DNA of 64,000 nucleotides from Okamejei kenojei (GCA_035221665.1 CM069142.1:7254001-7318000), one strand, 5' to 3'. Positions 28,749 through 64,000 are shown, counted from the stretch's first letter. Notes: a model not told the origin generated them from the sequence alone. Made by a program: numbers and translations.

Positions 28749-28934
28749 CATAGATACCTGTACATAGATACATAGACAATAGGTGCAGGAGTAGGCCATT
28801 CGGCCCTTCGAACCAGCACCGCCATTCAATGTGATCATGGCTGATCATCCACAAAGTACCCCGTTTCTGCCTTCTCCCCATATCCCTTGACTCCGCTAGC
28901 CCTAAGAGCATTATCTAACTCTCTTTTGAATGCC

Positions 28935-30900: not shown

Positions 30901-30904
30901 TCGA

Positions 30905-32860: not shown

Positions 32861-33030
32861 TCAGACAAGGCAGCAATGTTACAAACTTTTGAGATTTAAA
32901 AAATCAAGTCTGCAATTTATCCCATCAGATAGAGCATGAAAAGAAGTTTGATTTGACACCTAATTCACTTTCATATCTTCAGTATTAAAAAAAGTTATGG
33001 CCATTTTCATACTCGGAAATTTGCATCTTG

Positions 33031-39984: not shown

Positions 39985-41556
39985 AAGTGGCTTGCAAAAG
40001 TATTCATACCCCTTGAACTTTTCCACATTTTGTCACGTTACAACCACAAACATAAATGTATTTTATTGGGGTTGTATGTGATAGACCAACACAAAGTGGT
40101 GCATAGTTATGAAGTGGAAGGAAAATGGTACATGGTTTCCAAATTTTATTACAAATAAAAAACTGAAAAATGTGATGTGCAAAAGTATTCAGCCCCCCTG
40201 AGTCAATACTTTGTAGAACCATCTTTCGCTGCAATTACAGCTGCAAGTCTTTTGGGGTATGTCTCTACCAGCTTTGCACATCTCGAGTCTGAAATTTTTG
40301 CCCATTCTTCTTTGCAAAATAGCTCAAGCTCAGTCAGATTGGATGGAGAGCGTCTGTGAACAGCAATTGTCAAGTCTTGCCAGAGATTCTTAATTGGATT
40401 TAGGTCTGGACTTTGACTGGGCCATTCTAACACATGAATATTCTTTGATCTAATCCATTCAATTGTAGCTCTGGCTGTATGTTGAGGGTCGTTGTCCTGC
40501 TGGAAGGTGAACCTCCGCCCCAGTCTCAAATCTTTTGCAGACTCTAACAGGTTTTCTTCCAAATTTGCCCTGTATTTGCCTCCATCCATCTTCCCATCAA
40601 CTCTGACCAACTTCCCTGTCCCTGCTGAAGAAAAGCATCCCCACAGCGTGATGCTGCCACCACCATGTTTCACAGTGGGGATGGTGTGTTCAGGGTGATG
40701 TGAAGTCTTAATTTTCCGCCACACATAGCGTTTTGCATTTAGGCCAAAAACTTCAATTTTGGTCTCATCAGACCAGAGCACCTTCCTCCACGTGTTTGCT
40801 GTGTCCCCCACATGGCTTGTGGCAAATTGCAAATGGGACATTTTATGGCTTTGTTTCAACAATGGCTTTCTTCTTGCCACTCTTCCATAAAGGCCCAATT
40901 TGTGGAGTGCACGACTAATAGTTGTCCTGTGGACAGATCCTCCCACCTGAGCTGTGGATCTCTGCAGCTCCTCCAGAGTTACCATGAGCCTCTTGGCTGC
41001 TTCTCTGATCAATGCTCTCCTTGCCCGACCTGTCAGTTTGGGTGGACGGCCATGTCTTGGTAGGTTAGCAGTTGTGCCATACTCTTTCCATTTTCGGATG
41101 ATGGATTGAACAGTGCTCCGTGAGATGTTCAAAGCTTGGGATATTTTTTTATAACCTAACCCTGCTTTAAACCTCTCCACAGCTTTATCCCTGGCCTGTC
41201 TGGTGTGTTCCTTGGGCTTCATGATGCCCAAGGAACATTGTTTGTTCAGTAATGTTCGCTAACAAACCTCTGAGGCCTTCACTGAACAGCTGTATTTATA
41301 CTGAGATTAGATTACACACAAGTGGACTCTATTTACTAATTAGGTGACTTCTGAAGGCAATTGGTTGCACTGGATTTTATTTAGGGGTATCAGAATAAAG
41401 GGGGCTGAATACGTTTGCACGCCACACTTCACAATTATGCACCACTTTGTGTTGGTCTATCACTTAAAATCCCAATAAAATACATTTATGTTTGTGGTTG
41501 TAACGTGACAAAACGTGGAAAAGTTCAAGGGGTATGAATACTTTTGCAAGCCACTG
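39985..41556 (-). mobile_element. Tc1 transposon
   Basis: TA-flanked TIRs (A/C)AGTGGCTTGCAAAAGTATTCA...TGAATACTTTTGCAAGCCACTG. Confidence 0.96.
40203..41231 (-). CDS. Tc1 transposase, uninterrupted 342-aa ORF with catalytic E changed to K
   Basis: HTH/GRPPK, WSDETK, QQDNDP, SPDLNPIKNLW (canonical PIENLW). Confidence 0.9.
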   Translation of the reverse strand: MGIMKPKEHTRQARDKAVERFKAGLGYKKISQALNISRSTVQSIIRKWKEYGTTANLPRHGRPPKLTGRARRALIREAAKRLMVTLEELQRSTAQVGGSVHRTTISRALHKLGLYGRVARRKPLLKQSHKMSHLQFATSHVGDTANTWRKVLWSDETKIEVFGLNAKRYVWRKIKTSHHPEHTIPTVKHGGGSITLWGCFSSAGTGKLVRVDGKMDGGKYRANLEENLLESAKDLRLGRRFTFQQDNDPQHTARATIEWIRSKNIHVLEWPSQSPDLNPIKNLWQDLTIAVHRRSPSNLTELELFCKEEWAKISDSRCAKLVETYPKRLAAVIAAKDGSTKY

Positions 41557-44500
41557 TATATTAGGTACCTTGGTGCCATATTGCTGTACTTACTTCTAAT
41601 AAAATAAAAATAATAAATAAAATTAAAAAAAAACTTTAATATTATTGTATAATATGCTGTAAGTCTGTAACAGATAGTTAAATAAATTACAATTTCTAGC
41701 AATAGACCAAGTCTTTATGAAGATCAGTTGCTAGCTGGTACATTGGCATATCATAATCAGTAGCATCATCATACTCCTCAGATTGTAACCAATAAGCAAC
41801 TCTGTACACCTTGTTTTTCCTCAACCTTTCAATGTTGGCATTGTAAATTACAAGTTTTTGCTCTTCAAACCACGTATGACGTGCCTTTCTGCCCACTACT
41901 TTCCCATTAAGATTGTCCTGTAGATTCCATTTTTTAAGAAATGAATTTTTTTTTTAAATAGCCTAAGTATCCAAATAACAAACTAATCCCATTCCCACAA
42001 GAATTCACAATATAACATGATTTTTAAATCTCACTGTCATGAATTTATATGCCAGATGGAAGGAATTTAATGTTTAATTCCCATAAATTATTCTAGAAAC
42101 ATCCACTCAATATAATCAAAATTATTATTTTTTTGCTCAATACATGTGACTCAAACTGTTGTGAATATTTAGTTTATAAATAATGATCATGGAGAGAGAA
42201 CAACACAAAATATAGACAATTTAGAAACGGCTTATGACATAATTGTCCAAAAAAAAGAGCATTTTAATCATCTTGCAAGTGGGTTTTTCAGGAATGTGAT
42301 CAATTGGAACGTTACATTTGTGGTGAATTTGAACCCCATATCGGCAGAAAAAACACTGCCGATTCGTATGGGGCACAAATAACATTTTTGCAACGTAAAA
42401 TTAGATTAAAGCCATCCCAAGAAGCAAGAATATATATGTAAAATACACAACTTACCCTTTGTTTTGTCCCGTTCTTGCGATCCGTCACTTTGTAGGAGTT
42501 GAGGGCCTTAGAAGTCGCGTTTTATTTTAATCCGATTATTAAATTGTCTAGCGATTTTTTTTTTTTAATATACCGGGAACGGAAGTCCGATTGATTTTTC
42601 TTCATCAGCTAGCAGCCCGAGCAAATCCACCTCCGACAGGCAGTACAAAACTGGATTTTAATCCCGCCTCCCCCCCGCCCCAAAGGCACCAAAGTTGCGC
42701 ACATGCCCAGTGGCAGAACTGCAGCGCCACTGAAGGTAAGTATTGTAACACCGCAAGACAAGGGGTCCCCGGGGATATTTTGCTTAGGTTTCCATTTTTA
42801 CATACCAATTGTTTAATATTATAATGGCGAACCATATTCTCTCTCTTTTTTTAATACAATCTTTACGTTTCCATGGATCCAAATAACACATAAATGCTGT
42901 AATGAAGCTCCCACATATATCGAAGCTTGCACATGTACTGAAGCTCCCACATGAATCTTATCCCGAGCCAGGCACGTGCCGTCAGGTAGCCAGTCAGCCG
43001 GCTTTTAAAAAAAATCTTAAACCGCGCATGCGCAGATTGTTAACATGTGAAGGTCTGTGCAGCCCACGTGCCGTCAGCGCTGCCTGAGCCGTCAGTTTCA
43101 AGGGGAGCTGAAGGCAGCTGAAATTCTGCCGTTGCAGCACTGCGCAGGTGCAGCAGCCTGATGCGCATGCACAGCGCGAGTTTCTTGGCTGGATTTTCAA
43201 ATATGGATTTGCATTATTTTAATAGTATCTTAGGAAACAAAGAGAGAAGAATGGACTTAATGTACCAATAACGTGGTAAGTGCATTTCTTAGTGCTTAAT
43301 TTTTATAAATACTGTATTTTCCGAGGTGGGGGGAGACCTCCATTCACATTGTTTAGGGAGTCTAGCGTTGTGAAGGAGGGGATTGGGGTCAGTAACCCAC
43401 TTGCCACGCTCCGGTCTGAGTGCAGGTAGATGGGACTAGGGTGAGAGTAAGTGTTCAGCACGGAGTAAAAGGGCAGAGATGGCCTGTTTCCGTGCTGTAA
43501 ATTGCTGTATGGTTTTATTGTGGCCGGGGAGTGAATTAGCTTGGTGGCTGCCGCAGCGCTCCGCGCACGGACAGCCCTGGCCGCCACTTCCGAGGAAGGA
43601 AGCAGCTCGGTGACTGCCGGTGGCCGCCGGGACCCTGCCAACTTCAGCCACTTCAGCCCCTTCTGCTGGTCCCCACTCACCGCTGGCAGTGCTCTCCGTC
43701 TGAACATCTCTCACCTGCCGCTCGCCGGCCGGCTTCCCGCAAATCTTTAAATTCCGACAGCGCGTTCACGGGACCAGTTGAGGTTACTTGGCTGTGGGAA
43801 TTTTAAGGATTTGCGGGACGTGTGAGGCTACAAATCAGGACTGCTTTGAATCAGGTTTTGTGTTCGTGTTATAGACACAAGATAAGACACATCCCCCTGT
43901 TTCCACTTTGCAAGCTGTCACAGTCAGAGAGTCATCTTTAGTCAGAGGGTGGTGAATCTGCAGATTTCATTGCCCCAGACGGCACAAAGAGGCCAAGTCA
44001 ATGGGTATTATTAAAGTGGAGATTGACAGGTTCTTGATTAGTACGGGTGTCAGGGGCTATGGGGAGAAAGCAGGAGAATGGGGTTGAGAGGGAAGCATAG
44101 ATCAGCCATGATTGAATGGCGGAGTAGATCGATGGCCGAATGGCCTAATTCTGCTCCGATGATTTATGAATTTATGAACTTATGTCATAGAACTGTACAG
44201 CATGGAATCAGGCCCTTTGGCCCATCTTGTCCAAGTCATCCATGTTGACACACTGGGCCAGTCCCACTTGCCTGCATTTGGCCCATATCCCTCTAAACCC
44301 TTTCTTATCCATATCTCCATGGTGCATTTCATAGTAGATTTATATCATAACCATATAATATTGGGCAACATGGAGGCGCAGCGGTAGAGTTGCTGCCTTA
44401 CAGTGCCTGCAATGCCAGTGACCCGCGTTAGATCCCAACTGCGGGTGCTGTCTTTACAGAGTTTGTATGTTCTCCCCGTGACCGCATGGGTTTCCTACGA

Positions 44501-44744
44501 GATCTCCCACACTAGGTGTGAGCGTGGTTGTGAGTGTGTGGGGGTGAGTATGAGACTCGGTGTGGGTGTGTGTGTGTGAGACTGGATATGAGTGTAGGTG
44601 TGAGTATGAACTGGATGTGAGTTGTAGTGTGCATGTGCATGGAGTGTAAGTGTGAGTCTGGATGTGGGTGTGTGGCGTGAGTGGCTGTGAGTGTGAGTAT
44701 GTGTATGTGTGGTGCAGTGTGTGTGTGTGTGTGGGTGCATAGTT

Positions 44745-45400
44745 ATACCTGTACATAGATACATAGACAATAGGTGCAGAGGAGGCCATTCGGCCCTTCG
44801 AGCCAGCACCGCCATTCAATGTGATCATGGCTGATCATCCACAAAGTACCCCGTTCCTGCCATATCCCTTGACCTCCCTTGACCTCTATCTAACTCTCTT
44901 TTGAATGCCTCGACTGCCTTCTGAGGCAGAGAATTCCACACACATCCACAACTCTCCACGTGAAAACGTTTTCCTCATCTCAGTTCTAAATGGCCTATCC
45001 CTTATTCTTAAACTGTGGTCACTGGTTCTGGACTCCCCCAACATCGGGAACATGTTTCCTGCATCGAGTGTGTCCAATCCCTTAATAATTTTATATGTTA
45101 CTCTAAGATCCCCTCTCATCTTTCTAAATTCCAGTGAATACACACACAGTCACTCCATTCTTTCATCATATGTCAGTCCCGCCATCCTGAGAATTAACCT
45201 CATGAACCTACGCTGCAATCCCGCAATAGGAAGAATGTCCTTCCTCAAATTAGGAGACCAAAACTGCACACAATACTCCAGGTGTGGTCTCACCAGGGCT
45301 CTGTACAACTGCAGAAGGACCTCTTTGCTCCTTAACTCAGCTCCTTTCGTTATAAAGGCCAACATGCCATTCGCTTTCTTCACTGCCTGCTGAACCTGCA
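44745..45400 (-). mobile_element. CR1 LINE 3' fragment between TG-rich repeats
   Basis: LYRALVRPHLEYCVQFW..., YSLEFRKMRGDL; (TAGA/TACA) tail. Duplicated at 63540-64000. Confidence 0.85.
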
Positions 45401-45636
45401 TGGAGTGTGGGTGTGGGTGTGAGTATAGGTGTGAGTGGAGTGTGAGTCTGATTGTGGGTGTGGGTGTGAGTCTGGCTGTGAGGGGAGTGTGAGTGTGTGA
45501 GGGGAGTGTGAGCGTGTGTGAGAGTGTGAGAGTGAGTGAGGATGTGAGTCTGACTGTGTGTGAGGGGAGTGTGAGGGAGCGTGAGTGTGTGTGAGTGTGA
45601 GTGACTGTGTGTACAATGTTACAGAGGGCAGCACTG

Positions 45637-45769
45637 GGGTGGGAGATTGCAACCTTCACGTGCTCCGCCCTGTTTCAACCTGCAATCAACCTGGTGTGCA
45701 CAATCAAATAAGATCAAGTTGTCCGACAACTTTAGGCTGTGCGCGCTAACACACACAAGAAGAAGAAGT
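45637..45769 (+). mobile_element. ~135-bp (GAA)n-tailed retroposon
   Basis: TSD AGGGCAGCACTG at 45625-45636 and 45770-45781. Homologous to 13914-14054. Confidence 0.82.
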
Positions 45770-46156
45770 AGGGCAGCACTGCCTCTTTTTCCTTCTTGTG
45801 GGGATGAGGCATTAAGTTCTTCGTCTTCCTCGTGTCCGGCCATCTTCTATATCACGTATTTCCAGTCGTCAATGACGTTGGCGTGGGCGGTTTGCACAAT
45901 TGGCTGCTTCAGTCATTCACTGTGGAACAGTTCCTGTCGTCAGCATTGCCCGGGAAGCCCCACGTGGAGGCTTCTGCTTGCATCCCGGTAACGTTCTGAT
46001 GCGCGGGCTTCCTGTGAGAGTGTGGGGCTGATCTCATCGTTTGATCTCATCTTTTTCTCGCAGCGTTTTTTCTGGATAGACTCATGAGTAAGAAGCAAAT
46101 AATTGGAATGACATGCGCGTTTATGAGTGCTGCCATATTCACGTGCCGACAGCTGT

Positions 46157-46180
46157 GAACAGGAAGAGGAACAGGAAGAG
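46157..46180 (+). promoter_or_regulatory. Tandem ETS/PU.1-like motifs immediately before the B7-like ATG
   Basis: GAACAGGAAGAG x2, with GGAA cores and GAGGAA across the junction. Confidence 0.4.
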
Positions 46181-46238
46181 ATGTTCCCACGGACAGCCTG
46201 CTTCTGTATTTTTGGAATTTTTCAACTCATATCAGCAG
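46181..46238 (+). CDS. Signal-peptide (leader) exon of B7-family HHLA2/B7-H7-like gene
   Basis: MFPRTACFCIFGIFQLISA+G, 58 nt, phase-1 donor CAG|GTAACG, in unique sequence and compatible with the phase-1 V exon. Confidence 0.8.
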
Positions 46239-47834
46239 GTAACGATCTACTTTCCTGATGTTTTGTATGGGCATTGCTAACTTGATCAGAACCTGGATCA
46301 TAGTTCAGGTTCACAATCTGTAGAACTACACAGCACAGAAACAGGTCTTTATGGGCCTGTTCCACTTATGTGACTGTTTATGCGACCGCTGGAGACCATG
46401 CAGTCACCACATCAAGAAGAGTGTTTTATTGTCTATGTCCCGGACGGACAATGAAATCCTTACTTGCTGCAGCACAAGAGAATATGTGAATATGTAAACA
46501 TAGTACATAACGTGGGAAGAGAAAGAAAAAAAAAAATCAAATGTTCAATAAATAACAAAGATAGTGCAATAATAATATAGTCTTTTGCAGCTCAGAGAGA
46601 GCTTGTTCGTGGTTGTGTTTAATAGCCTGATGGCTGCAGGGAAGAAGCTGTTTCCTGAACCTGGACGTTACAGTTTTTCAGCTCCTGTACCTTCTTTCTG
46701 AGGGCAATTGTGAGATGAGTGTGTGGCCAGAATGGTGTGGGTCTTTGATGATTTTAGACAATAGACAATCGATGCAGGAGTAGGCCATTCGGCCCTTCGA
46801 GCCAGCACCGCCATTGAATGTGATCATGGCTGATCATCTCAATCAGTAACCCGTTCCTGCTTTCTCCCCATATACCCTGATTCCGCTATCAAGCTCTCTC
46901 TTGAAAGTATCCAGAGAACTGGCCTCCACCGCCCTCTGAGGCAGAGAATTCCACAGACTCACAACTCTCTGTGTGAAAAAGTGTTTCCTAAATGCCTTAC
47001 CCCTTAAACTGTGGCCCCTGGTTCTGGACTTCCCCAACATGGGGAACATTTTTCCTGCATCTAGCCTGTCCAATCCCTTAAGAATTTTATATGTTTCTAT
47101 AAGATCCCCTCTCATCGTTCTAAATTCCAGTGAATATAAGCCCAGTCGATCCATTCTTTCATCACATGTCATCTTCTTTCATCAAATGTGGAGGGAATGG
47201 ACAGGTGATGTTCAGGACCTTCCTCAGACCCTTTGTGTTACATTTAGATCAGAGTTCTCAGAATCCCACCTCCGTTGCATACAAGAGTACTGCAAAGGCC
47301 CTTCTGCCCACAATGTATGTGCTGAACAGACCCTTATCCTATCCCTCTATTCCCTGCACCTCTATGTGCCTATCTAAAAGCCTCTTCAATACTACTGATG
47401 TATGTGCCGCCACCACCAGCCCTGGCAGCAGCTTCTGGGCACCCAACACTCTCGGTGTAAAACCTTGCTCCGCACATCCCCTTCCCATCCCCCCCCCCCC
47501 ATCACCTTATGGCTACGTTTAATATGGTTCTATGCTTAGAGTCAAGGCCAGTAGGTTCTGTTAATTTGCACGTTCTCCCTGTGACCACAAATGTCTCCTC
47601 CAGGTGCTCCGGTTTCCTCCCACATCACACGACGTGCGGGTTTGTAGGTTAACTGGCCTCTGTAAATTGTCCCTAGTGTAAAGGGAGTGGATGAGAAAGT
47701 GGGATAACATAGAACTAGTGTGAACGGGTGGTCGATGGTCGGAATGGGCTCAGTGGGCTGAAGGGCCTGTTTCCGTGCTGTATCTCTGAGCTAATGTAAG
47801 CGGATGGCTGTGAATCGTGCTCTCGTTGATGCAG

Positions 47835-48218
47835 GAGATGTGGACGATACGTTTCCCATTAGTAACGGTCAATGTGGCGGTTTGCTTGCAGGTCCGAGCT
47901 TGGTAGCCGTTGTCTCCAGAGACGTGGTGCTGCCCTGCACATTCCCACCGGCCCCTCTGCCGGAGATTGTGCTGCACTGGATGTACAGTGTGGGCCAAAG
48001 CACCCAGGTGGTGCACAGCTTTTACCGAGGAGCAGATCAGCTGGCTAACCAGGACCCACACTACAAGGGAAGGACGGGACTCTTCCACAGTGAGATAGCG
48101 AGAGGGAATGCATCGCTCCGTCTGACGGCCGTCAGCATCCGCGACGAGAGATTGTACCGGTGTTACGTCAGTACTTCGAGAGGGAAGGTGGAGACCAACG
48201 TGGACCTGCAAGTGGCTG
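47835..48218 (+). CDS. IgV exon of B7-family protein, HHLA2/B7-H7-like (alternative acceptor at 47892 possible)
   Basis: DVVLPCTF..EIVLHW..VVHSFYRGADQLANQDPHYKGRTGLFHSEIARGNASLRLTAVSIRDERLYRCYVST..NVDLQVA. Phase-1 acceptor gcag| and donor G|GTCAGA. The HW/VHS.Y.G.D.L..QDP.Y..RT.LF..EI..GNASL pattern is typical of HHLA2 and related B7s. Confidence 0.88.
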
Positions 48219-48696
48219 GTCAGAACCTCATTTATATGTCTGTCAGTCCTGTTAGAGTCATCCCGTCACACAGCACGGGAACAGGCCCTTCTGCCCAACA
48301 TGCCCGTGCCGACCAACATGCCCCATTCTACACTAGTCCCACCTGCCCGAGTTTGGCCCATATCCCTCTTAACCTTTCCTATCCATGTACCTGGACAAAT
48401 GTCTGTCAAATGCTGTTATTCAGCCAAGTCGAGTGTTAACAAATCTCATTGTAAGTACTCAACAAAGGATCAAAAAACAAATGCAGAGCAAAGTAAAACT
48501 AAATAAAAAATATGGCAGGAGCTGGAACAGGGGAGGTTCAGTTGGTACCTGTGTAGGAAAGAACTACAGATATTGGTTCATACACTGAAGATAGACACAC
48601 AATTCTGGAGTAACTCAGCGGGACAGGCATCATCTCTGGAGAGAAGGAGTGGCTGACCTTTCGGATCGAGACCCTTCTTCAGACTGAAGTTTTTAA

Positions 48697-51600
48697 TAGT
48701 AAGATTAAACGAGAACTTACCAGTTCAAAGTTTGATCGTTATTTTATGAGGAGTTACGATGAGGGATTACGTGAAGAACCCGCCTCACGCTGGCAAACGG
48801 CATACTTCAAAGCAGCGGCATGAAAAACACAGAACACCAAATAGCCGAAGTAACATAGTAAGGCTCATAAAAGACTTAGAACTACCAGATTGATCATTTA
48901 TTTTATGAGGTGGGGAGTGGAGGGCACGTAATCCCTCATCGTAACTCCTCATAAAATAACGATCAAACTTCGAACTGGTAAGTTCTCGTTTAATCTTACT
49001 ATTTTACTTCGGAGTCACGTGAGTGACTACGTGAAGATTTTAAAGCTTTCTGTGTTTTTATGTCGTAGTATTTAATTAGTACGACAGTCCGGCTAAGTAA
49101 ATACATACATGAGAAACCAGACTAATATTAGTTCTTTCCATAATTAACTTTGTAATGGTTTATAGAACATATAATAACCCTCCTTATATCCGAGGGAATG
49201 ATTACAAGTGGTAAAAGATATAAGTGACTACATAATTGGTTATAGTAATCAATAGTATACAAAGCAGGTGATTATATTGATCCCAACACCGCGTGGCCAA
49301 AGCTTGTCATAGTGTGAACAGGTTTATTGTAGAACTTTGAAAAAGTTTCTTCTTTACTCCACCCTGTGATTTTTTAAAATATGCTCGAGTGGTACGTCCC
49401 GCACCTTCGCCGCGGACGTAGCTGCAGCCCTGGTGGAGTGAGATTTGAACACATCAGTGTCTACTTCTGCTAAAAGCAACACCTGTTTCAACCATTTTGA
49501 GATAGTTTGAACTGAAGCTTTTGTGTGTGGCTTTTTATGCGTAATCATTAACATTTTTTCATTTCCTTGAAGAGTTTTCAGTAACTTTAACATATTGATC
49601 CAAATGTTTAACCACACACAAAGTAGGATCAAATAGGATAAGCTTGAAAGGTTACCTTAGCTCCAGATCTCCCTGGTCTGCTTTGTTTGATCAGATCGTA
49701 AACATAGAACACAATGTTATCTGTAGTCACATGCATACAGTCTAAACGCAACATTTGTAAAGTTTGCACTCTTTGAGCTGAAACCAATGACATTAATATT
49801 ATTAATTTGAATGTTAATCTTTCCAATGACAATCCTTCAATTGGAGTCCACTGTCTAAGTAAGGTAAGTACAATGCTCACATCCCAAATCTCTGTGTATC
49901 TAGGTTTGGGTGGATTAATATTAAAGATTCCTTTCATGAATCTAGATATTAGTGGATGTGATCCAATTGATTTCTGGTCAGACATAAGTCCTAAATAAGA
50001 TGATAAGGCACTGCGTGCAGTGTTAGTGGCACTGTAACTTAAATGTTGCTCAAAATGCAATTTAGCAAGGAGCTCCAATACATTTTCCATGCAATATCAC
50101 AGTATCACAATATCAAACATGCAATATTCACCGTATCATAAGAAATATTTGACTGTGTGCAAAATTCTTCCCATTTCTTAATATGTGTCATATATTGTTT
50201 TTGTGTTTTATCTCGCCATGACGCGACTATAACCTCCATAGTTTTGTCCGACAATCCCAGCTCCTGTAGTGGTCTGGTCAAAACCTGCAGATTAATAAAT
50301 TCATATATGCATATAATGCATACATTTCTTTGGTTACTGGATTAATCAAAATATCACTACAGTTAGGAATTGACATATATGGTTCTTTAATCATATTCAG
50401 CATTAATGGGAACCAAGGTTGTGTTGGCCAATTTGGAACTACCAACAATCCTGTGGCAGAATCTTGTTCTATTTCCTTCAGACATTGCTGAACCAAAGCA
50501 AAAGGTGGAAAAGCATAAAAGAACATATTCCCCCAGTTCAATGAAAAAGCATCTACTGCTACTGCATCTGGATCGTGTTCCCAAGACACATATTTAGGCA
50601 ATTGATGATTAAGCCTTGATGCAAACAAATCAATTTCTGGTAAACCAAATTGAGTTACAATATTCTTAAATATTGCTGGATTAAGCATCCATTCTGTGTT
50701 ATCTTTAAATATCCTTGATCTTTTATCTGCCACCACATTGTCTTTACCTGGAATGTAGTTTTGCTGAAATCCAAATTTGGCGATCAATACACCATTGCCA
50801 TATTTCATTGACCAGACAATCACATGATACTGATCTGACTCCCCCCATGTGATTAATATATGCAACAGCCGTTTTATTGTCTAACTGTATTAATACATGT
50901 AGACCCTTTTTTGAACTGCAATATGCTTTTAGACCATAGAAAGCACCCAATAACTCTAAATAGTTAATACCATAAGTTTGAAGAAACGTTTCTTCTTGGA
51001 CTTTCCATCTACCTCCACAACTGGAGGATGAATCTGTTACCCCCCTCCCCCCCCCCCCCCCCCCCCCAAAAGCTTCTTTTGTTAATTGCATAGGCCTATC
51101 AAAGTGGCCTGCCCTCTCTTTGAGAGCTCTTATTTTGTCCCTTTGAAGATTTTGATAATGTAATGGACCAAATTCTACTGCAGGAAATGCTGCTACTAGT
51201 TTACCAATAGTTTTCGCTACTTCTCGGATGGAAGGATAAGTTTGTGAATGAGATTATTACAAGTCACCAAAAAATCATCAACTTTATCTTTGTTGGTAAA
51301 GTATTAACATAGTCTCTGAGTTAATTACAAACTCCAAATAGTTAATTGATTGTGCTGGCTGCAGCTGGGATTTAATTGGATGAATCAAGAACCCTAGCTT
51401 TAACAAAGCTTTGTACTGAAACTAATTCTCAGCTGACTCTTGATTGCCATAAATGATTAGAATGTCATCGAGATAAGCCATAACGATGTGTTTTTGTACT
51501 CTTAATTGGGCTAAAACTGGTTTCAACAGTTTAGTAAAGAGCCTGGGAGCTGAACTCAATCCATTTGGCAAAGCTTTAAACTGCCATAATTGTCCCAGCC

Positions 51601-53555
51601 AATTAAATTTTAAGTACCTCCAGAAACTGATGTATTGGTACAGAATAATAGGCGTTTTTCAAATCAATCGTAGCCATATAACAACCTGCTGATATTAAAT
51701 ATCTTGCAGTATTAAATGTTTCCATTTAAAAGTTTGTATTCTACCACTTATTTAGATCTGTAAGGTCCAGAATAATTCTGCAATCACCATCTTTTTATGT
51801 CTTTTGAAATATCTTAGACACAATTGATGCTCGTGTTTATAAGTTTTTTCAATAACCCCTTTTCAGATAATTTGTCAATTTCCACATTAATCTCTGCTTT
51901 TCCAATTGCAGTAAACACGAAAGCATAGGCAGGTTTATCTGTACTGGAGGATTAACCCCTTCTTTAAATGTAATAGTGGCTCCTGAAACTGCTTGTAAAA
52001 ATAAACCGATCAGAAGTAATAGTAAGCCAGTCTTTATAAAACTTTTGTAATCTCCCTCCAACTGGAGATTAATCCGCAGTTTCTTTAAGGATAGAACAAG
52101 TCTTTAATACCTCTCCATATGAGCGTGGTGGTCTCCTTTTCCCCGAATACGGGTAAGTATTGGGCTGTGCAGTACGATAATATTTCCTTGACATATTTCT
52201 GCCTCTATTTCCAAAATCAAATCCCCTTCTGGGCGAAAAATACCTTTTTTTTTTTTTTTTTTTTTTGGTCCTAAGACGAAGGTTTCATGCAGCTAAAATT
52301 TTTAGCTTTCTTCATCCAATTTTTTAATAATTTAGGCAAATTTACTCCAAACAGATAACCAGGAGCTTGAACACCACTTGCTCAACACAGGCTTGCAAAC
52401 CTTGGGTGAAATATGGGCCGAATAGCCATTTTCCTCATACAATAATTTCATAGAAAGAATTGCACAATAGGCCCTCTTTTTTAAACTTATCCATCTCCCC
52501 AGAAGCCATAATGGCAGCAGAATAATTTGTGAGGATTTTTGAACCTCACTTCTTGAGCTCTCATATTTGGGGTCATGGATGCCCATATCAACGGATAAAC
52601 CGTAGGCACTTCCAATGAGGCACAATTTCCTGTGCGTTTATAATTCTGATGTTTCAATCATCACAGAATCATGAAGTTGGTGAGATACCATATATTAATG
52701 TTGGCAGCTAGGTTTTCTTCCATAGCCTCACCACTTCCTTCATATATAGCAAATTCTTTTGCTATCCCAGGCACATTTGGCCTTTCTTTTATTTTGTGGT
52801 GTGTTTTTTAAATGCAAATCACCATCAGCAGGGTCTGCCTTCTGCAGCCCTAAATCAATTGGGATTTCATCCCATGAGACTTCCTTCGGCCCAAATCCTG
52901 GGTCCGGAGTTCCAACTCCCAATTAGGCCCACAGCCATATTTAGAATAATTAAACCCCTCAGGGCTTTTTTGGGAACCTTCTGGGTACTGTGACCCTAGT
53001 CTCATAATTTTTTGGAGAACTTTCTCCATATGCTCCATTATTAGTTCCACATAGTTTAATTATCTGGAGGACTTTCAGTATCAGAGTCATCAGAACCACG
53101 GGCCTCTCAGATTTCTTTTACATTTTTAGGAGCATTTCTCTCCGTGGTTATAACTTCTGGAGAATCTAGAACTCGCTAACGGGTATATCAGCGGCCACCG
53201 GTATCGGAACCGGATCCGCACTAGCTTTTTTCCCGTATTTTTATTTTCACCCCGGGAAGCTCTTTTTACCCGCGAATTTTCTTTGCCGATTTCTCCATTT
53301 CTTTCATAATCTGTGCTAAACAGCACTTTAACGTGACTCTGACTTTTATTTTACTTTACTTTTACTGCTGGACCCACCCAGCGTACTCTAACGAACGTCC
53401 CGACTTTGCCCCACTTACCTGCGGGTCCGTTCCGACCGCTGCGAGGAGCTGCTCCTTACTGCAGCTCCTCCTTCCGCCGTCAGCGTCGACGTAATGCCGT
53501 TTGCCAGCGCCAGGCGGGCTCTTCACGTAGTCACTCACGTGACTCCGAAGTAAAA
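48697..53555 (-). mobile_element. DIRS1-like retrotransposon, second family, ORFs disrupted
   Basis: YR (HSTRAAA) 49354-50090; MT-like (DLFAS..FPPF) 50278-50865; RNase H 50744-51091; RT remnants. Same termini as the first DIRS; ICR ~48925-49037. Confidence 0.95.
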
Positions 53556-55073
53556 TTGAAATTTGGGAAACAAGCAGTATTTTAAATATTTCCAAATCTG
53601 TGACTATCTGAAAAAATATGCACAAGACTATCACAATATGCCTCCAGACTTACTGGAAGAAGTAATGAATACAAAGGCAGAATCAGCAAACCTAATATCA
53701 TATATATATAATATTATTCTAAATGCAGAAATACCAACAACAGAAGGTATCAGGAGAGACTGGGAAAAATAATTAAGTATAAACATTCCCAAAGAAAGGT
53801 GGGAAGAATATTTATTAAATGTGCATAAATGTTCAATTAATGTAAGACACACCTTAATACAATTTAAAATCTTACACATATTATACTATTCAAAAACTAA
53901 AATACATGCAAGAGTACATCAAAAAAGTACCGGTGTCGGGTCTTGGTAAAGGGGGAAGAAAAACTGTCGAGTTGGTAGATTCCTTTTGCGAGATGTTTAT
54001 AATAAAGTAGGGGGTACACAAAAAGCTGGAGAAACTCAGCGGGTGCAGCAGCATCTAAGGAGCGAAGGAGATAGGCGACGTTTCGGGTCGAGACCCTTCT
54101 TCAGACTGGTAACTGGCTTTTCTTTTTTCCTTCTCTTTCTTTCCTTTTTTTTCTCCTCTTCAGGGTCTATCTTTTAATCTCCTTTCTCTAACTCTTTGCC
54201 AAAGGGTTCCCTTTCCCTCTGCCACGCTTTTTCACTTTCACAACTCTTTTTCACTCTTCTACTTTCTCTGTTGATATTTATTTCTCTTTTCTTTCTTTTC
54301 TAAAGCCTTAAAAAATTAAGGGGTACAATGATTGTAATACTATATAAGGGATGTACACTGATGTAACTTACTGTACCTCTAATAAATAATGATATACAAA
54401 AAAATATAAAAAATAAAATATCGACAAGGTCACCAATCCTAATGCCTGGTTATGCGGCAAAGAAAATGACCAGTCTCTTTGCTGAGTAATAAAAGGAGTA
54501 ATAATCCCCCGTTTAATAAAAGTCGAGAAGACAGAGAATACACAGTTAATTTCTACATAGATAACCAATACATTTTCAAAGAGCAAACAGATAATAACTT
54601 TGTCCCAGGCTCAATGCCAATACAGCTGCAACTTCTTAAAGAGACACTCCTTGTAACGCATCAGACTCTACAAAGATTTATCACGTAAATGAGCAAGCTT
54701 ATTCAATGACATCCTATTTCATCTTAATTATAGGATTAATTCAACATTCACCGAGAACCGGTTCCACAGAGAAGTAACAGTCTTTAAACTCACTCACTCT
54801 ACACCCTGTTTCTACCATTCACTCACAAATTTCCACACCCAATGCGATATGCTAAATCTCAAATATTCACACACGTTAAAGCAATAGAATTCTCACTCAA
54901 GAGTAAAACAGTTATGTACTCCTCAGGGAAATCATGCAAAACTCTTAGACTTTGAAATATATCTGCTGTACGGGCAATAATGTCAGTTGGGACATTCATA
55001 GACCCCGGGACTTTGTTGTGGCCACTTGTATGGGCATTGCATTTAATAATGGCCAGTTGGACTGGAAGAGTTG

Positions 55074-55628
55074 AGGGCCTGTCCTACCAGCATCCGACTC
55101 CATGCGGTGAGCGCGACCAAACTGGAATCGGGGGCCGCGCGGAGGTCGAGTGATCCCTGTACAGGGCCGATCCCACCAGCATCCGCCTGCATGCGGCGAG
55201 CGCGACCAAACCGGCAGCGGGGGCCGCACGGAGGTCGGGTGAATGGCGCGAAGTGAGGCGAAGTGGCAGCGAATTCCGCAAGGTAAGTTCTCAAGGATAG
55301 AGAGGGACACACAGAGAGGGGCATGGAGGCACACAGAGAGAGGGCCACGGAGGCACACACAGAGAGGGTCATGGAGGCACATATAGAGAGGGTCACGGAG
55401 GCCGTGCGTAATGCGTCGAGGCGACTGCGGGCCGACAGGCCGTTGCCGCACGGAATTTTTGAACAGGGTCAGTTTTTCGGAGCCCCGCGCGATGTCGGGA
55501 CCAGCTCTGCACAACTCCGCATGGCTCCAGCGATCGAAGTGGGACCAGCCCCGCAAGGCCGGACGGCTCAAGCGACCACATTAGGTCGCGCTCACCGCTT
55601 GGAGTCGCATGCTGGTAGGACAGGCCCT
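55074..55628. mobile_element. MITE, duplicate of 31549-32103
   Basis: Same TIRs and flanks. Confidence 0.85.
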
Positions 55629-57000
55629 TTAAGGCATGCAGTAGCTGGTGCAGTAGCAAGCGCTGTTTTAAAGTTGCGAAAGTCTTCTTGTTGGGAGTGA
55701 GAGAGTTAGAGAGAATTGCTGTGACATATTTGAGAAAGAATAGCTGTTGTGCCCTGGTGGAGGCACCAATGTATCCACTGTCGGTAGAAATTAACCAAGC
55801 CCAGAAATGGGATTGGTCCGATTCCCTATCATATAGGGTCTTGCCACACCTCACACTTGCTGATTACTCAGACTCTCCCCGCTCTCTCCACCAGGAAGAG
55901 GAGCTCTGTGTTTCAAACAGGTCAGAGTCTTTTGTTTCAAATTTGTTTTAAACTGTACTGACTGTTGGCTGCAAAATGTTAAAGTTCTTGGGGCCAGAGT
56001 GAGCAGCCTGGATTCTTGCGGGATAGTTAAGATACAGTGTCTCGAAAGTTACCAGCTTGACATCCTGATTTATCTTTTCAATCTTCTTATTTTTCTGCTG
56101 TTTCTCTTTCTTGGTGCTCTGTGTGGTTTAACTCTCTCACTGCTCTACCTCTTCTGCCTTAAGCCTTCTCCCTTCTTCTTCCTCATCTTCCTTATCAGTT
56201 CTTCCTTCTTCTGATGGTGCCCTTCCCTGTAGACGTACTGGAACATTTCCTCTTCACGGGATCTGAGTGTCGTAGCTCCTGCTGTTAGTGACCGGGTGGC
56301 CAGGGCATGGGGGACGTATTCTACACTATTTCCAATTATTTCTCCCTCCGAATTTGTTCCTCATCCCCCCTCTCTCTGTAAACAAAGTCATTATATCAGA
56401 CAAGGCAGCAATGTTACAAACTTTTGAGATTTAAAAAATCAAGTCTGCAATTTATCCCATCAGATAGAGCATGAAAAGAAGTTTGATTTGACACCTAATT
56501 CACTTTCATATCTTCAGTATTAAAAAAAGTTATGGCCATTTTCATACTCGGAAATTAGCATCTTGTTCTCTATTGCTTTGCCATTGACTTAACACAAAAG
56601 CTGTGATCGAGGACAGTCAAAAGCCCATAACTTTCTAAAAAATTAAGAGAACTGAATTAAATTTTCAGTTATTATAGATTGAAACACTCTGAAACAAATA
56701 TAAAACATCTTACTTGGATGACCTGAAATTAAAGCATATAATTAGTTAATTACCTAATTATGGCTAATTTTAAAAATGACCGTTACATAGAAACATAGAA
56801 ACAGAGAAAATAGGTGCAGGAGGAGGCCATTTTGCCCTTTGAGCCAGCATCGCCATTCATTGTGATCATGGCTGATCGTCTGCTATCAATAACCCGTGCC
56901 AGCCTTCTCCCCATATCCCTTGTGACGGAAATAGTAATAAACACCCAGACTACCTTGAAAATTCAAAAATGTGATATTCTCAAGATCAGAACTTTAATAT

Positions 57001-60000
57001 CCGATATACTTTTATATATTACAAACTCACAAACGAGTATACCAAACTTATTTTATGCCTTTATTAAATAAACTCAACGTCTCGATTAAATTCTGGAAAA
57101 CACTTCCGTTATCATTAATAGGCAGAATAAATGCTATAAAAATGATCTTTTTACAACAAATATTATATCTATTTCAATCTATACCATTATATATACCAAA
57201 AAACCTCTTAAAAAAATTAGACACTAATATTACCAATTTTATCTGGGATTATAGATCACATAGAATCCAAAGAAAACATCTGTGCAAACCAAAAGATATT
57301 GGGGGACTTTCACTTCTGAACTTTTTGTATTATTATTGGGCAGTGCATATTAAGAATATAATTTACTGGTTGGACAGTTCTACCCAACAGACAGAATGGA
57401 TAAGAATGGAGAAAGAGGACTGTTCTCCTTGTAATATAGGAGCGATCCTCTTCTCCCTGATAAAACTGAACAACACAATATATAAGAATAACCCAATTAT
57501 ACATGATACAATAAGAATTTGGAAACAAATAAAATTATCCTTAAAATTAAGAAACCTATCATTGTTAATGCCAATAGTGAATAATCCTTCATTTAAACCA
57601 TCTCTTATTGATAAAACATATAATCAATGGAAAGAATGGGAATTAAAAGGATCGGGGATATGTATGAAATGGGAAATCTGTTATCATTCCAACAACTTAC
57701 AATTAAAATTTAAACTGAAAAATAACCAATATTTTAAATATCTTCAGATCTGTGACTTCATGAAGAAATACATACAAGGATATCAAAACATAACTTCAGA
57801 GCCATTGGAAGAAGCAAAGAACATTAAGGCTGACACAGAAATTAATATCATATTTATATAATAGTATTTTAAATATAGATTTACCATCAACAGAGACACT
57901 TAGAGAAGAGTGGGAATGAGAATTAATGATAAAAATTAAGAAGGAAACATAGGAAAAGTATTTGATATATATACACAAATGTTCGATTAATGTAAGACAT
58001 AATTTAATTCAATTTAAAATTTTACATAGATTATATTACTCAAAAACTAGACTGAATAAATTCTATCCAAATACTTCCCCCATTTGTGATAAATGTCTAT
58101 CCCAAAACGCAACTATAACACACTCTTTTGTCTCCCGCATAAAACTTGATAAATTCTGGAGTGATATTTTTGAAATGTTTACAAAATTATTTAAGATTTT
58201 AAAATGGAACCTAATACTGAAATGATTATATTTGGAGTAATGGAAGATGGGAATAAACTGAACTCATCTCAAAATTTATTTTTTAATTATGGGTTAATAA
58301 CGGCAAAAAAACTTATACTTAACTTTTGGAAAAATACAACCATACCGATGCTTAAAAATGTGGATTTCAAGCATGTTGGACACTGCACAACTTGAGGAAA
58401 TGCGATTCCTCCTAATAGAGAAATCAAACCAATTTTTAACGAGTTGGTCTCCATTTGTCGATTTTTTGGAAGCATATGGTGCAACAAAACCGTAGAAGCT
58501 AACTGTTTCAGGATTGGGTGAGGGATGGTCAAGAATATAGATAACGATCCCCTTAATCTCTTACTTTTACCCTTCTTCTCTTTTTTTTTTTCATTCTCAA
58601 CTTTCTTTTTTCACACTTTTTTCTTTCTCACACACTATATATCACACATTTCTCTATCTTTTATTTTCTCCTCTCTCTTTTTCTTTTTCATTATTAAAAA
58701 AATTAAAAAATAAGAAGCTGTACATAAAATGTAATATGTCAATATAAAGTGGCTTGCAAAAGTATTCATACCCCTTGAACTTTTCCACATTTTGTCACGT
58801 TACAACCACAAACATAAATGTATTTTATCGGGATTGTATGTGATAGACCAACACAAAGTGGTGCATAGTTATGAAGTGGAAGGAAAAAGATACATGGTTT
58901 CCAAATTTTATTACAAATAAAAAACTGAAAAATGTGATGTGCAAAAGTATTCAGCCCCCCTGAGTCAATACTTTGTAGAACCATCTTTCGCTGCAATTAC
59001 AGCTGCAAGTCTTTTGGGGTATGTCTCTACCAGCTTTGCACATCTCGAGTCTGAAATTTTTTGCCCATTCTTCTTTGCAAAATAGCTCAAACTCAGTCAG
59101 ATTGGGTGGAGAGCGTCTGTGAACAGCAATTGTCAAGTCTTGCCAGAGATTCTTAATTGGATTTAGGTCTGGACTTTGACTGGGCCATTGTAACACATGA
59201 ATATTCTTTGATATAATCCATTCAATTGTAGCTCTGGCTGTATGTTTAGGGTCATTGTCGTGCTGGAAGGTGAACCTCACCCCCAGTCTCAAATCTTTTG
59301 CAGACTCTAACAGGTTTTCTTCCAAATTTGCCCTGTATTTGCCTCCATCCATCTTCCCATCAACTCTGACCAACTTCCCTGTCCCTGCTGAAGAAAAGCA
59401 TCCCCACAGCGTGATGCTGCCACCACCATGTTTCACAATGGGGATGGTGTGTTCAGGGTGATGTGAAGTGTTAGTTTTCCGCCACACATAGCGTTTTGCA
59501 TTTAGGCCAAAAACTTCAATTTTGGTCTCATCAGAACAGAGCACCTTCCTCCACGTGTTTGCTGTGTCCCCCACATGGCTTGTGGCAAATTGCAAACGGG
59601 ACATTTTATGGCTTTGTTTCAACAATGGCTTTCTTCTTGCCACTCTTCCATAAAGGCCCAATTTGTGGAGTGCACGACTAATAGTTGTCCTGTGGACAGA
59701 TCCTCCCAACTGAGCTGTGGATCTCTGCAGCTCCTCCAGAGTTACCATGAGCCTCTTGGCTGCTTCTCTGATCAATGCTCTCCTTGCCCGACCTGTCAGT
59801 TTGGGTGGACGGCCATGTCTTGGTAGGTTAGCAGTTGTGCCATACTCTTTCCATTTTCGGATGATGGATTGTACAGTGCTCCGTGAGATGTTCAAAGCTT
59901 GGGATATTTTTTTATAACCTAACCCTGCTTTAAACCTCTCCACAACTTTATCCCTGACCTGTCTGGTGTGTTCCTTGGGCTTCATGATGCCCAAGGAACA

Positions 60001-60451
60001 TTGTTTGTTCAGTAATGTTCTCTAACAAACCTCTGAGGCCTTCACTGAACAGCTGTATTTATACTGAGATTAGATTACACACAAGTGGACTCTATTTACT
60101 AATTAGGTGACTTCTGAAGGCAATTGGTTGCACTGGATTTTATTTAGGGGTATCAGAGTAAAGGGGGCTGAATACTTTTGCACGCCACACTTTTCAGTTT
60201 TTTTATTTGTAAAAAAATTTGCAAAGCATGTATCATTTTCCTTCCACTTCACAATTATGTGCCACTTTCTGTTGGTCTATCACTTAAAATCCCAATAAAA
60301 TACATTTACGTTTTGTGGTTGTAACGTGACAAAATGTGGAAAGGTTCAAGGGTATGAATACTTTTGCAAGCCACTGTATATTAGGTACCTTGGTGCCATA
60401 TTGCTGTACTTACTTCTAATAAAATAAAATAATAAATAAAATAAAAAAAAT
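57001..60451 (+). mobile_element. L1 fragment, duplicate of 38242-41631
   Basis: Same TSD AACTTTAATAT and same ORF2 fragments. Confidence 0.9.
58747..60376 (-). mobile_element. Tc1 transposon, duplicate; transposase 58951-59994 with C-terminal frameshift
   Basis: Same TIRs and TA flanks; shares the PIKNLW change; an extra T near 59060 shifts the C-terminus. Confidence 0.94.
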
Positions 60452-63400
60452 AACTTTAATATTATTGTATAATATGCTGTAAGTCTGTAACAGATAGTTG
60501 AATAAATTACAATTTCTAGCAATAGACCAAGTCTTTATGAAGATCAGTTGCTAGCTGGTACATTGGCATATCATAATCAGTAGCATCATCATACTCCTCA
60601 GATTGTAACCAATAAGCAACTCTGTACACCTTGTTTTTCCTCAACCTTTCAATGTTGGCATTGTAAATTACAAGTTTTTGCTCTTCAAACCACGTATGAC
60701 GTGCCTTTCTGCCCACTACTTTCCCATTAAGATTGTCCTGTAGATTCCATTTTTTAAGAAATGAATAATTTTTTTAAATAGCCTAAGTATCCAAATAACA
60801 AACTAATCCCATTCCCACAAGAATTCACAATATAACATGATTTTTAAATCTCACTGTCATGAATTTATATGCCAGATGGAAGGAATTTAATGTTTAATTC
60901 CCATAAATTATTCTAGAAACATCCACTCAATATAATCAAAATTATTATTTTTTGCTCAATACATGTGACTCAAACTGTTGTGAATATTTAGTTTATAAAT
61001 AATGATCATGGAGAGAGAACAACACAAAATATAGACAATTTAGACGGCTTATGACATAATTGTCCAAAAAAAAGAGCATTTTAATCATCTTGCAAGTGGG
61101 TTTTTCAGGAATGTGATCAATTGGAACGTTACATTTGTGGTGAATTTGAACCCCATATCGGCAGAAAAAACACTGCCGATTCGTATGGGGCACAAATAAC
61201 ATTTTTGCAACGTAAAATTAGATTAAAGCCATCCCAAGAAGCAAGAATATATATGTAAAATACACTTACCCTTTGTTTTGTCCCGTTCTTGCGATCCGTC
61301 ACTTTGTAGGAGTTGAGGGCCTTAGAAGTCGCGTTTTATTTTAATCCGATTATTAAATTGTCTAGCGATTTTTTAAAAAATATACCCGGAACGGAAGTCC
61401 GATTGATTTTTCTTCATCAGCTAGCAGCCCGAGCAAATCCCGCCTCCCGCCCGCCACAAAGGCGCCAAAGTTGCGCACATGCCCAGTGGCAGAACTGCAG
61501 CGCCACTGAAGGTAAGTATTGTAACACCGCAAGACAAGGGGTCCCCGGGGATATTTTGCTTAGGTTTCCATTTTTACATACCAATTGTTTAATATTATAA
61601 TGGCGAACCATATTCTCTCTCTTTTTTTAATACAATCTTTACGTTTCCATGGATCCAAATAACACATAAATGCTGTAATGAAGCTCCAACATATATCGAA
61701 GCTTGCACATGTACTGAAGCTCCCACATGAATCTTATCCCGAGCCAGGCACGTGCCATGAGTAATTACTCAGGGTAGCCAGTCAGCCGGCTTTTTAAAAA
61801 AATCTTAAACCGCGCATGCGCAGATTGTTAACATGTGAAGGTCTGTGCAGCCCACGTGCCGTCAGCGCTGCCTGAGCCGTCATTTTCAAGGGGAGCTGAA
61901 GGCAGCAGAAATTCTGCCTTTGCAGTACTGCGCAGGTGCAGCGGCCTGATGCGCATGCCCAGCGCGAGTTTCTTGGCGGGATTTTCAAATATGGATTGGC
62001 ATTATTTTAATAGTATCTTAGGAAACAAAGAGAGAAGAATGGACTTAATGTACCAATAACGTGGTAAGTGCATTTCTTAGTCCTTAATTTTTATAAATAC
62101 TGTATTTCCCGAGGTGGGGGGAGAGCTCCATTCACAGTGTTTGGGGAATCTAGCATTGTGAAGGAGGGGATTGGGGTCAGTAACCCACTTGCCACGCTCC
62201 GGTCTGAGTGCAGGTAGATGGGACTAGGTGAGAGTTAGTGTTCAGCACGGAGTAAAAGGGCGGAGATGGCCTGTTTCCGTGCTGTAATTGCTATATGGTT
62301 TTATTGTGGCCGGGGAGTGAATTAGCTTGGGTGGCTGCCGCAGCGCTCCGCGCACGGACAGCCCTGGCCGCCACTTCCGAGGAAGGAAGCAGCTCGGGTG
62401 ACTGCCGGTGGCCGCCGGGACCCTGCCACTTCAGCCACTTCAGCCCCTTCTGCTGGTCCCCACTCACCGCTGGCAGTGCTCTCCGTCTGAACATCTCTCA
62501 CCTGCCGCTCGCCGGCCGGCTTCCCGCAAATCTTTAAATTCCGACAGCGCGTTCACGGGACCAGTTGAGGTTACTTGGCTGTGGGAATTTAAGGATTTGC
62601 GGGACGTGTGAGGCTACAATCAGGACTGCTTTGAATCAGGTTTTGTGTTCGTGTTATAGACACAAGATAAGACACATCCCCCTGTTCCACTTTGCAAGCG
62701 GTCACAGTCAGAGAGTCATCTTTAGTCAGAGGGTGGTGAATCTGCAGATTTCATTGCCCCAGACGGCACAAAGAGGCCAAGTCAATGGGTATTATTAAAG
62801 TGGAGATTGACAGGTTCTTGATTAGTACGGGTGTCAGGGGCTATGGGGAGAAAGCAGGAGAATGGGGTTGAGAGGGAAGCATAGATCAGCCATGATTGAA
62901 TGGCGGAGTAGACTCGATGGGCCGAATGGCCTAATTCTGCTCCGATGATTTATGAATTTATGAACTTATGTCATAGAACTGTACAGCATGGAATCAGGCC
63001 CTTTGGCCCATCTTGTCCAAGTCATCCATGTTGACACACTGGGCCAGTCCCACTTGCCTGCATTTGGCCCATATCCCTCTAAACCCTTTCTTATCCATAT
63101 CTCCATGGTGCATTTCATAGTAGATTTATATCATAACCATATAATATTGGGCAACATGGAGGCGCAGCGGTAGAGTTGCTGCCTTACAGTGCCTGCAATG
63201 CCAGTGACCCGCGTTAGATCCCAACTGCGGGTGCTGTCTTTACAGAGTTTGTATGTTCTCCCCGTGACCGCATGGGTTTCCTACGAGATCTCCCACACTA
63301 GGTGTGAGCGTGGTTGTGAGTGTGTGGGGGTGAGTATGAGACTCGGTGTGGGTGTGTGTGTGAGACTGGATATGAGTGTAGGTGTGAGTATGAGACTGGA

Positions 63401-64000
63401 TGTGAGTGTAGTGTGCATGTGCATGGAGTGTAAGTGTGAGTCTGGATGTGAGTGTGAGCGTGGGTGTGGGCGTGAGTGGCCGTGAGTGTGAGTATGTGTA
63501 TGTGTGTGCAGTGTGTGTGTGTGTGTGGGTGCATAGTTATACCTGTACATAGATACATAGACAATAGGTGCAGGAGGAGGCCATTCGGCCCTTCGGGCCA
63601 GCACCGCCATTCAATGTGATCATGGCTGATCATCCACAAAGTACCCCGTTCCTGCCTTCTCCCGACCTCCCTTGACCTCTATCTAACTCTCTTTTGAATG
63701 CCTCGACTGCCTTCTGAGGCAGAGAATTCCACACATCCACAACTCTCCATGTGAAAATGTTTTTCCTCATCTCAGTTCTAAATGGCCTATCCCTTATTCT
63801 TAAACTGTGGTCACTGGTTCTGGACTCCCCCAACATCGGGAACATGTTTCCTGCATCGAGTGTGTCCAATCCCTTAATAATTTTATATGTTACTCTAAGA
63901 TCCCCTCTCATCTTTCTAAATTCCAGTGAATACACACCCAGTCACTCCATTCTTTCATCATATGACAGTCCCGCCATCCTGAGAATTAACCTCATGAACC

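Follow-up and report, generated by a model that had tools for sequence, protein, structure and literature searches.

Okamejei kenojei carries, within the 64,000 nucleotides considered here and referred to below as the window (GCA_035221665.1, CM069142.1:7254001-7318000; C12:7254001-7318000 in a genome of 2.76 Gb), part of a tandem array in which the 5′ part of a B7-family gene is repeated. One complete DIRS1-like retrotransposon, D, sits exactly between the tandem copies, its two flanks being the two unit ends. Over the window and 100 kb on each side, the locus has the order a-U-D-U-D-(gap)-D-U-b, where U is the duplicated unit and D the junction element. In this report, we describe the array, the exons it contains and the structure of D, and weigh the proposal that D is the product of an unequal crossover between two DIRS insertions. 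Coordinates are those of the window, continued beyond its ends. The units and the features that define them are as follows.

30035..48696, plus strand: unit 1 of the tandem array, with native L1 sequence on its left and a second DIRS inside
30035..30037, plus strand: empty AAT core in L1 (ACAACTAA-AAT-ACAATTTGG), a recurrent DIRS target and the left unit boundary
33029..37813, plus strand: DIRS-A, the second DIRS, of another subfamily, found in unit 1 only, with RVT_1 and Phage_integrase matches
53554..64000, on to 67495, plus strand: unit 2, followed by a second copy of the chimeric DIRS

From left to right, native L1 sequence leads into unit 1, D and unit 2 (53554-67495). Next come the second copy of D (67496-72433) and the beginning of a further unit, then a 500-N gap (75157-75656); past the gap, the right half of D recurs ahead of the last unit (78331-92410), beyond which the native intron continues. 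In a self-comparison of the window, 30040-33032 and 53560-56567 are 98.2% identical, and 37812-45208 and 56566-64000, where the alignment resumes past a 4.8-kb insert, are 96.3% identical; the alignment of copy 2 opens at 53560, right after the DIRS end at 53555, in agreement with an earlier note on this DNA. The site of DIRS-A is empty in unit 2 (56566-56567) and in the last unit. Both outer ends of the array are without a DIRS. The intron junction of D occurs twice in the genome, in units 1 and 2 only, and the corresponding intron site (GTTTTT-AAT-TGATTTG) has no insertion either in the last unit (92410) or in an inverted paralogue lying at about -37.9 kb; in copy 2, where the earlier note had looked for an empty site at about 67.5 kb, it is filled by the same DIRS. 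The inverted paralogue of the B7-family gene extends from about -55000 to -29000 (L023-L026), with 94-98% identity in blocks and no DIRS ends inside.

The exons of the gene that fall in unit 1 are listed below, the first two being read from the sequence only.

ends at 43275, plus strand: candidate untranslated exon upstream of the leader
46064..46238, plus strand: predicted leader exon (ATG at 46181, MFPRTACFCIFGIFQLISA, phase-1 donor)
47892..48218, plus strand: IgV exon of the B7-family gene (V-set, E 4.7e-10), with splice sites and phase 1 at both ends

Each unit contains a candidate promoter and untranslated exon, the leader exon and the IgV exon, whose best PDB matches are CD276 and VTCN1; the same leader peptide recurs in units 2 and 3, and the unit-2 IgV exon is shifted in frame by one base, within sequence whose indel error is ~1-2%. 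Two further exons are single-copy and lie beyond the last unit: a CD276-like IgC exon at ~98.4 kb and a second IgV exon at ~101.1 kb with weak non-B7 matches only, giving, with the IgV exon at ~91.6 kb, the exon order IgV, IgC, IgV (a V-C-V layout). Because the IgC and second IgV exons are outside the unit, the upstream units are truncated gene copies in which the 5′ part alone is duplicated; the whole B7-like gene taken by the earlier note to have been duplicated thus shrinks to the promoter, leader and first IgV exon. A Pfam scan of 144 of the 166 listed plus-strand frames, the 22 left out being edge duplicates, repeat frames or frames scanned already, revealed no transmembrane exon and no additional B7 exon.

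The junction element is resolved into the following parts.

48695..53556, minus strand: D, a full-length, coding-decayed DIRS1-like retrotransposon and two-clade chimera, recognized by its ends, inverted repeats and internal complementary region
48695..50319, minus strand: 3′ half of D, of the A-type clade (like L087, L095 and L100) at 36/38 diagnostic columns, scored on nine A copies picked for likeness to D
48752..48790, plus strand: right inverted terminal repeat, A/CA type, as read in the sequence
48925..49037, plus strand: internal complementary region, matching both ends of D, with the circle junction CTTACTA-TT-TTACTTCGG
50320..51071, no strand: interval of the proposed crossover, in which no column separates the parent clades (the last G-type column is D2484 and the first of A type D3237)
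51072..53556, minus strand: 5′ half of D, of the G-type clade (like L061, L072, L075, L076, L078 and L079) at 26/26 diagnostic columns, scored on six G copies picked for likeness to D
53494..53532, minus strand: left inverted terminal repeat, G/GG type, which disagrees with its right counterpart, as read in the sequence
53557..53559, plus strand: TGA, where the L1 site and two other junctions have AC; unexplained, and a point against the crossover

DIRS1-like retrotransposons are described, in the part of the source used here, as having inverted terminal repeats, an internal complementary region, a three-base circle junction (mostly ATT), no target-site duplication, and a reverse transcriptase (RT) and tyrosine recombinase (YR) (PMC3266345). 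D has inverted terminal repeats and an internal complementary region that matches both ends (48695-48773 against 49003-48925, 98.7%; 49001-49037 against 53556-53520, 100%), a three-base circle junction in common with its target, with AAT/ATT cores at 48695-48697 and 53554-53556 and a 5′ end that reads ...CCGAAGTAAAA up to 53555, and no target-site duplication, as judged from empty sites and the flank tally. The RT/RNase H, methyltransferase and YR coding regions are all present as decayed remnants, with E values of 1.8e-37 and 3.8e-38 for RT and YR (tblastn, DIRS-A RT and YR frames as queries) and a below-cutoff PCIF1_WW match only for the methyltransferase region. D departs from other DIRS1-like elements in this decay and in the conserved inverted repeats, which are non-complementary at three clade-marking positions. 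It also lacks ~100 bases at 51056-51090, beside a G run/poly-C run, that are present in the second copy of D and in 9/9 relatives shown, and this loss is likely to be a consensus fault of the assembly. The genome holds ~12,700 DIRS elements, as estimated from 25,463 exact matches to the terminal motif, of which each element has two.

The two halves of D descend from different clades. Its 5′ half differs by 0.73-1.25% from G-clade copies and by 1.86-2.53% from A-clade copies, while its 3′ half is 0.73-1.31% from the A clade and 3.4-7.1% from the G clade, and the best two-parent breakpoint falls at D2621-3237. When relatives are instead sorted by terminal-repeat type alone (27 full-length copies, 13 G and 14 A), D is G at 9/9 columns in the 5′ part, through position 1824, and A at 50/50 columns from 3436, 33 of them within one indel. 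A two-parent model leaves three mismatches in 255 informative columns, against 31/227 and 33/255 for the best single relatives. The second copy of D has the same clade switch and shares 6 of the 18 private positions of D, in both halves. The earlier note had asked whether this DIRS is a chimera of two subfamily copies, and the two clades and discordant terminal repeats answer that it is.

Interior mosaics are frequent among copies of this family even though their ends agree, a pattern suggestive of replication in which one end serves as the template for the other. A chimeric interior alone could therefore come from template switching, and the argument for recombination after insertion rests on the discordance of the terminal repeats. 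The left and right inverted repeats of D have 234 and 229 exact matches in the genome, respectively, and copies were fetched from the first 19 of the left type and the first 20 of the right type (39 unselected), with one deliberately chosen pair (L080) in addition. Both repeats are of one type in 31/32 readable unselected copies, the remaining one being discordant at one of three positions, and seven copies were unreadable. On contigs C1-C9, where both lists are complete, 1/96 G-type left ends was found by eye to share an element with an A-type right end. L080 (C9:76.42 Mb) likewise has discordant terminal repeats; its switch falls within the first 130 bases, near the 5′ end, a pattern unlike that of D. 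L100 resembles L080 in its discordant inverted ends and in a switch within the first 130 bases.

The flanks of D come from two loci, as the earlier note had recognized: on the left lies the intron that follows the IgV exon, and on the right the L1 site copied from 30035. In copy 1, this L1 is unbroken across 30040, with 29424-30379 aligning through to another L1 copy and an RVT_1 match at 28919-29500, and 30031-30047 reads CTAAAATACAATTTGGG. In a flank control of 60 elements against 0.94 Mb of fetched DNA, 27 had no match, 8 matched on one side only, 22 were concordant and 3 were without a join, a tally in which 9 of the 22 concordant elements had been chosen for a known site and 35 of the 60 elements were untestable. 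Two candidates for discordant flanks, L094 and L095, were rejected on inspection, each lying within a single repeat. After inspection, D was the sole element with unrelated flanks.

Both flanking sites obey the ATT target rule of the family (in the fetched copies, A upstream in 56/60 5′ flanks, and 3′ flanks that begin T, T in 52 and 51 of 54), and both unit boundaries fall on the three-base integration core. A breakpoint within five bases of a DIRS end has a probability by chance of ~1e-4 (~12,700 elements in 2.76 Gb; own arithmetic), and with both unit ends on the core, the coincidence of breakpoint and DIRS end is not chance. It could be supposed that an unrelated break made the duplication and that a DIRS, a member of an abundant family, inserted later exactly at the junction; this is exceedingly unlikely, given that both unit boundaries are ATT-type cores obeying the target rule, one of them a recurrent target, and that the chimera would be left unexplained.

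The L1 position is a preferred DIRS target, although the ATT rule alone may account for part of the excess. At 72.4 and 78.3 kb, the junction sequence is GTAAAA-TACAATTTGGG, just what precise insertion at the L1 core gives, and this sequence has 14 exact genome matches, 12 of them outside this locus. Among look-alike junctions (the 12 exact ones and 2 of 16 one-mismatch places), the same L1 lies on that side in 13/14, and its other half was found at the far end in 8/8 where that end was located. The elements at this position belong to several subfamilies, with L129 and L130 resembling one insertion copied. Empty L1 sites number at least 1,027 exact matches, of which random insertion would fill ~0.002 of a site (own arithmetic). 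A DIRS was observed at the recurrent L1 position, which corresponds to 30035 in the window, in 13 other places (L125-L136, L143, L144). In L137-L142, a short satellite-like repeat (flank TTGAATTTGGTGGCCTGCAC) has likewise been hit by DIRS elements at one recurring position, with two of them within 5 kb in L139.

At the locus itself, the intron end and two of the three L1 ends are precise, and the L1 end in the window is off by three bases. The earlier note had remarked on a TAAAAT shared by the L1 site and the DIRS end; the sharing is real, and it is the residue of precise DIRS integration at the L1 site, with no special joining reaction implied.

These observations are best accounted for, and with good though not complete confidence, by an unequal crossover in which two independent DIRS insertions, probably carried by different haplotypes, took part, the counterpart of Bar and roo in Drosophila. 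An A-clade DIRS would first have integrated at the ATT core in the intron downstream of the IgV exon, and a G-clade DIRS at the ATT core in L1, ~14-19 kb upstream, probably on the other haplotype. The two near-identical elements would then have mispaired and crossed over within 50320-51071, yielding a-U-D-U-b with one hybrid element and none at the outer ends, and a later unequal exchange would have copied the D-U module again. We infer that the 5′ half of D descends from the insertion at the L1 site and the 3′ half from the insertion in the intron, the DIRS recombinase having presumably made both insertions and host homologous recombination the duplication. A crossover between two insertions in the same orientation leaves precisely discordant flanks, discordant ends and one interior switch, and D is a hybrid of two copies whose switch lies in a stretch of identity, as expected of a Bar-type event. 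With the insertions on different haplotypes, a-U-D-U-b with empty outer ends arises in one step. A simple crossover within one haplotype bearing both insertions was rejected, since it would leave a DIRS at both outer ends, which are empty; it survives only with a later exchange of both outer ends. The earlier note had held that DIRS made the duplication, either through recombinase-mediated joining of non-allelic sites or through unequal crossover between two insertions. The chimera and the recurrent L1 target bear out the second route; the first is superfluous and gives no reason to expect a chimera, as joining by the recombinase implies that the junction element descends from one insertion, and D is a hybrid.

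Divergence between units (1.31%, or 176/13,412, 1.18% and 1.26%) exceeds the private changes of D (0.33%) and of DIRS-A (0.69%), in keeping with units drawn from haplotypes already diverged as alleles; this comparison of ages is rough and inflated by assembly errors. Several observations weigh against the crossover. The common interior mosaics and the discordant ends of L080, described above, are two of them. Another is the TGA at 53557-53559, which is identical to the native right flank of the intron, the three bases that follow the empty intron site, and would suit a G-ended element once flanked by intron sequence on either side; it lends slight weight to a single element that underwent a second join later. 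Such a history would begin with an already chimeric DIRS in the intron, the 5′ end of which later became linked to the L1 site of a sister or homologous chromatid, through a trans-acting tyrosine recombinase or through template switching at TAAAAT mediated by microhomology. The L1 site suits it, being a preferred target that matches the circle junction at 9/11 bases, and so do the TGA, whose identity with the intron flank is a 1 in 64 event by chance, and the interior mosaics that replication produces in this family. It nevertheless requires an independent coincidence, a mid-element chimera with discordant ends, seen in 0/29 aligned relatives and at most 1/96 in the genome lists; two of three junctions read as plain insertion, and the clades of D have few or no long reading frames. 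Given the local fault of ~100 bases in D, the TGA may likewise be a consensus error. None of the 31 matches to a DIRS 5′ end checked in the assembly continues into the native right flank of the intron, and ~15 other copies lie in a satellite with a similar flank. We therefore regard descent from a single intronic element as unlikely.

The remaining points against the crossover concern the assembly. The region includes the 500-N gap, with an error of ~10-13% beside it; no read was found to span the junction, the contigs of four public runs having given 82,000-100,000 records each, nearly all repeat copies; and neither parental allele was seen in the single assembly examined. Among the matches listed for these repeat-swamped runs, no contig piece bridges either junction, and no listed run contains half of the sampled words. 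An assembler that crossed inside the DIRS between an allele with the intron insertion and an allele with the L1 insertion would fake both chimera and duplication and give exactly the same single junction; the gap, the low-quality sequence and the overlap-like repetition at 72-81 kb point the same way, and a unit divergence of ~1.3% could be allelic. Against this, such an error permits one DIRS-preceded unit start and two unit sequences, and the assembly has three such starts, each different from the others. Units 1 and 2 are distinguished by 37 columns, of which the start at 72.4 kb agrees with unit 2 in 21 and with unit 1 in 10, with 6 uncalled, and this low-quality start differs from the last unit at 16/31 called columns, so that the two low-quality stretches beside the gap were rejected as one molecule. 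Units 1 and 2 and the last unit each carry private substitutions along their whole length, the last alternating in blocks between unit-1-like and unit-2-like sequence, and the chimera is assembled twice with an identical switch. Mis-assembly is accordingly judged very unlikely, and the number of units per array is uncertain across the gap.

Other members of the DIRS family show further rearrangements. Of 15 G-type copies whose 3′ end is readable, 3 (L063, L075 and L077) have the segment of ~250 bases that separates the internal complementary region from the 3′ terminus in inverted orientation, presumably the outcome of recombination between these two inverted repeats. In L081, L082 and L090, the end of one DIRS directly adjoins that of another, re-forming the circle-junction sequence in head-to-tail copies. 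A sister clade (L062, L064, L070, L082, L085, L092), with either end type, has long, nearly intact reading frames, whereas the parent clades of D have few long frames, and the two may possibly stand as helper and dependent lineages. Inside the unit lies a Tc1-like transposase frame of ~350 codons on the minus strand (40203-41258 and 58951-60021), with the inverted repeats of the Tc1-like element at 39979-40116 and 41425-41562. Downstream of the B7-family gene are a broken long terminal repeat-type element at ~108-112 kb (L015), with fragments of protease, RT and RNase H, and another DIRS 3′ end at 113095-113413, and ~23 related IgV exons (33-40% identity) form a large cluster on contig C30:30.4-34.9 Mb.

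As for the gene, all exons are phase 1, so V-to-V splicing would keep the frame, and intron read-through in unit 1 would add ~70 residues before a stop; as predictions from the exon phases and frames, both forms are possibilities only. The duplicated module could thereby yield soluble or multi-IgV forms of a B7-family ligand, a suggestion drawn from genomic sequence and not from expression. A bolder scenario, in which the DIRS tyrosine recombinase links the end of an integrated element with a preferred target far away, and ~12,700 elements and the recurrent L1 targets would thereby constitute a site-specific duplication system and the multiplied promoter-leader-IgV modules would be expressed as secreted single-IgV or multi-IgV forms, is very doubtful.

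The gene shares its exon order with HHLA2, for which an IgV-IgC-IgV layout within the B7 family is given in the part of the source used (PMC10173190); the likeness drawn here is one of layout. With respect to the duplication, the mechanism is textbook and the element type is unusual for it. The case is an unusually readable transposon-made tandem duplication. DIRS ends are normally concordant, and discordant ends would flag copies recombined after insertion, offering a simple genome-wide test; repeated DIRS hits on one L1 position put near-identical substrates at predictable sites. Transposon-mediated non-allelic homologous recombination, with a hybrid element at the breakpoint, is familiar in vertebrates from Alu, L1 and endogenous retrovirus cases, from which the present one differs in having a tyrosine-recombinase retroelement as its substrate. 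No earlier sequence-level DIRS case of such a duplication was found in listings of the open-access literature; DIRS-aided chromosome fusions in Antarctic fish are proposed, in the part of that source used, from co-location in fluorescence in situ hybridization only (PMC6387122). The closest precedent is Drosophila Bar-1, described in the portion of the report used here as a tandem duplication made by unequal crossing-over between roo elements on different chromatids, with one complete roo between diverged copies, copy-specific insertions and one truncated gene (PMC13322080). The same architecture and mechanism being established there, the view of the earlier note that this would be an unusual route to immune-gene expansion is overstated. 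Both loci have a single complete element between tandem copies, diverged copies with copy-specific insertions and a truncated gene. They differ in the element, here a DIRS with an ATT core and no target-site duplication rather than roo; in the unit, 203.5 kb in Bar-1 and 14-19 kb here, where the module was amplified again; and in that the hybrid is directly readable in the present case from clade markers and discordant inverted ends.

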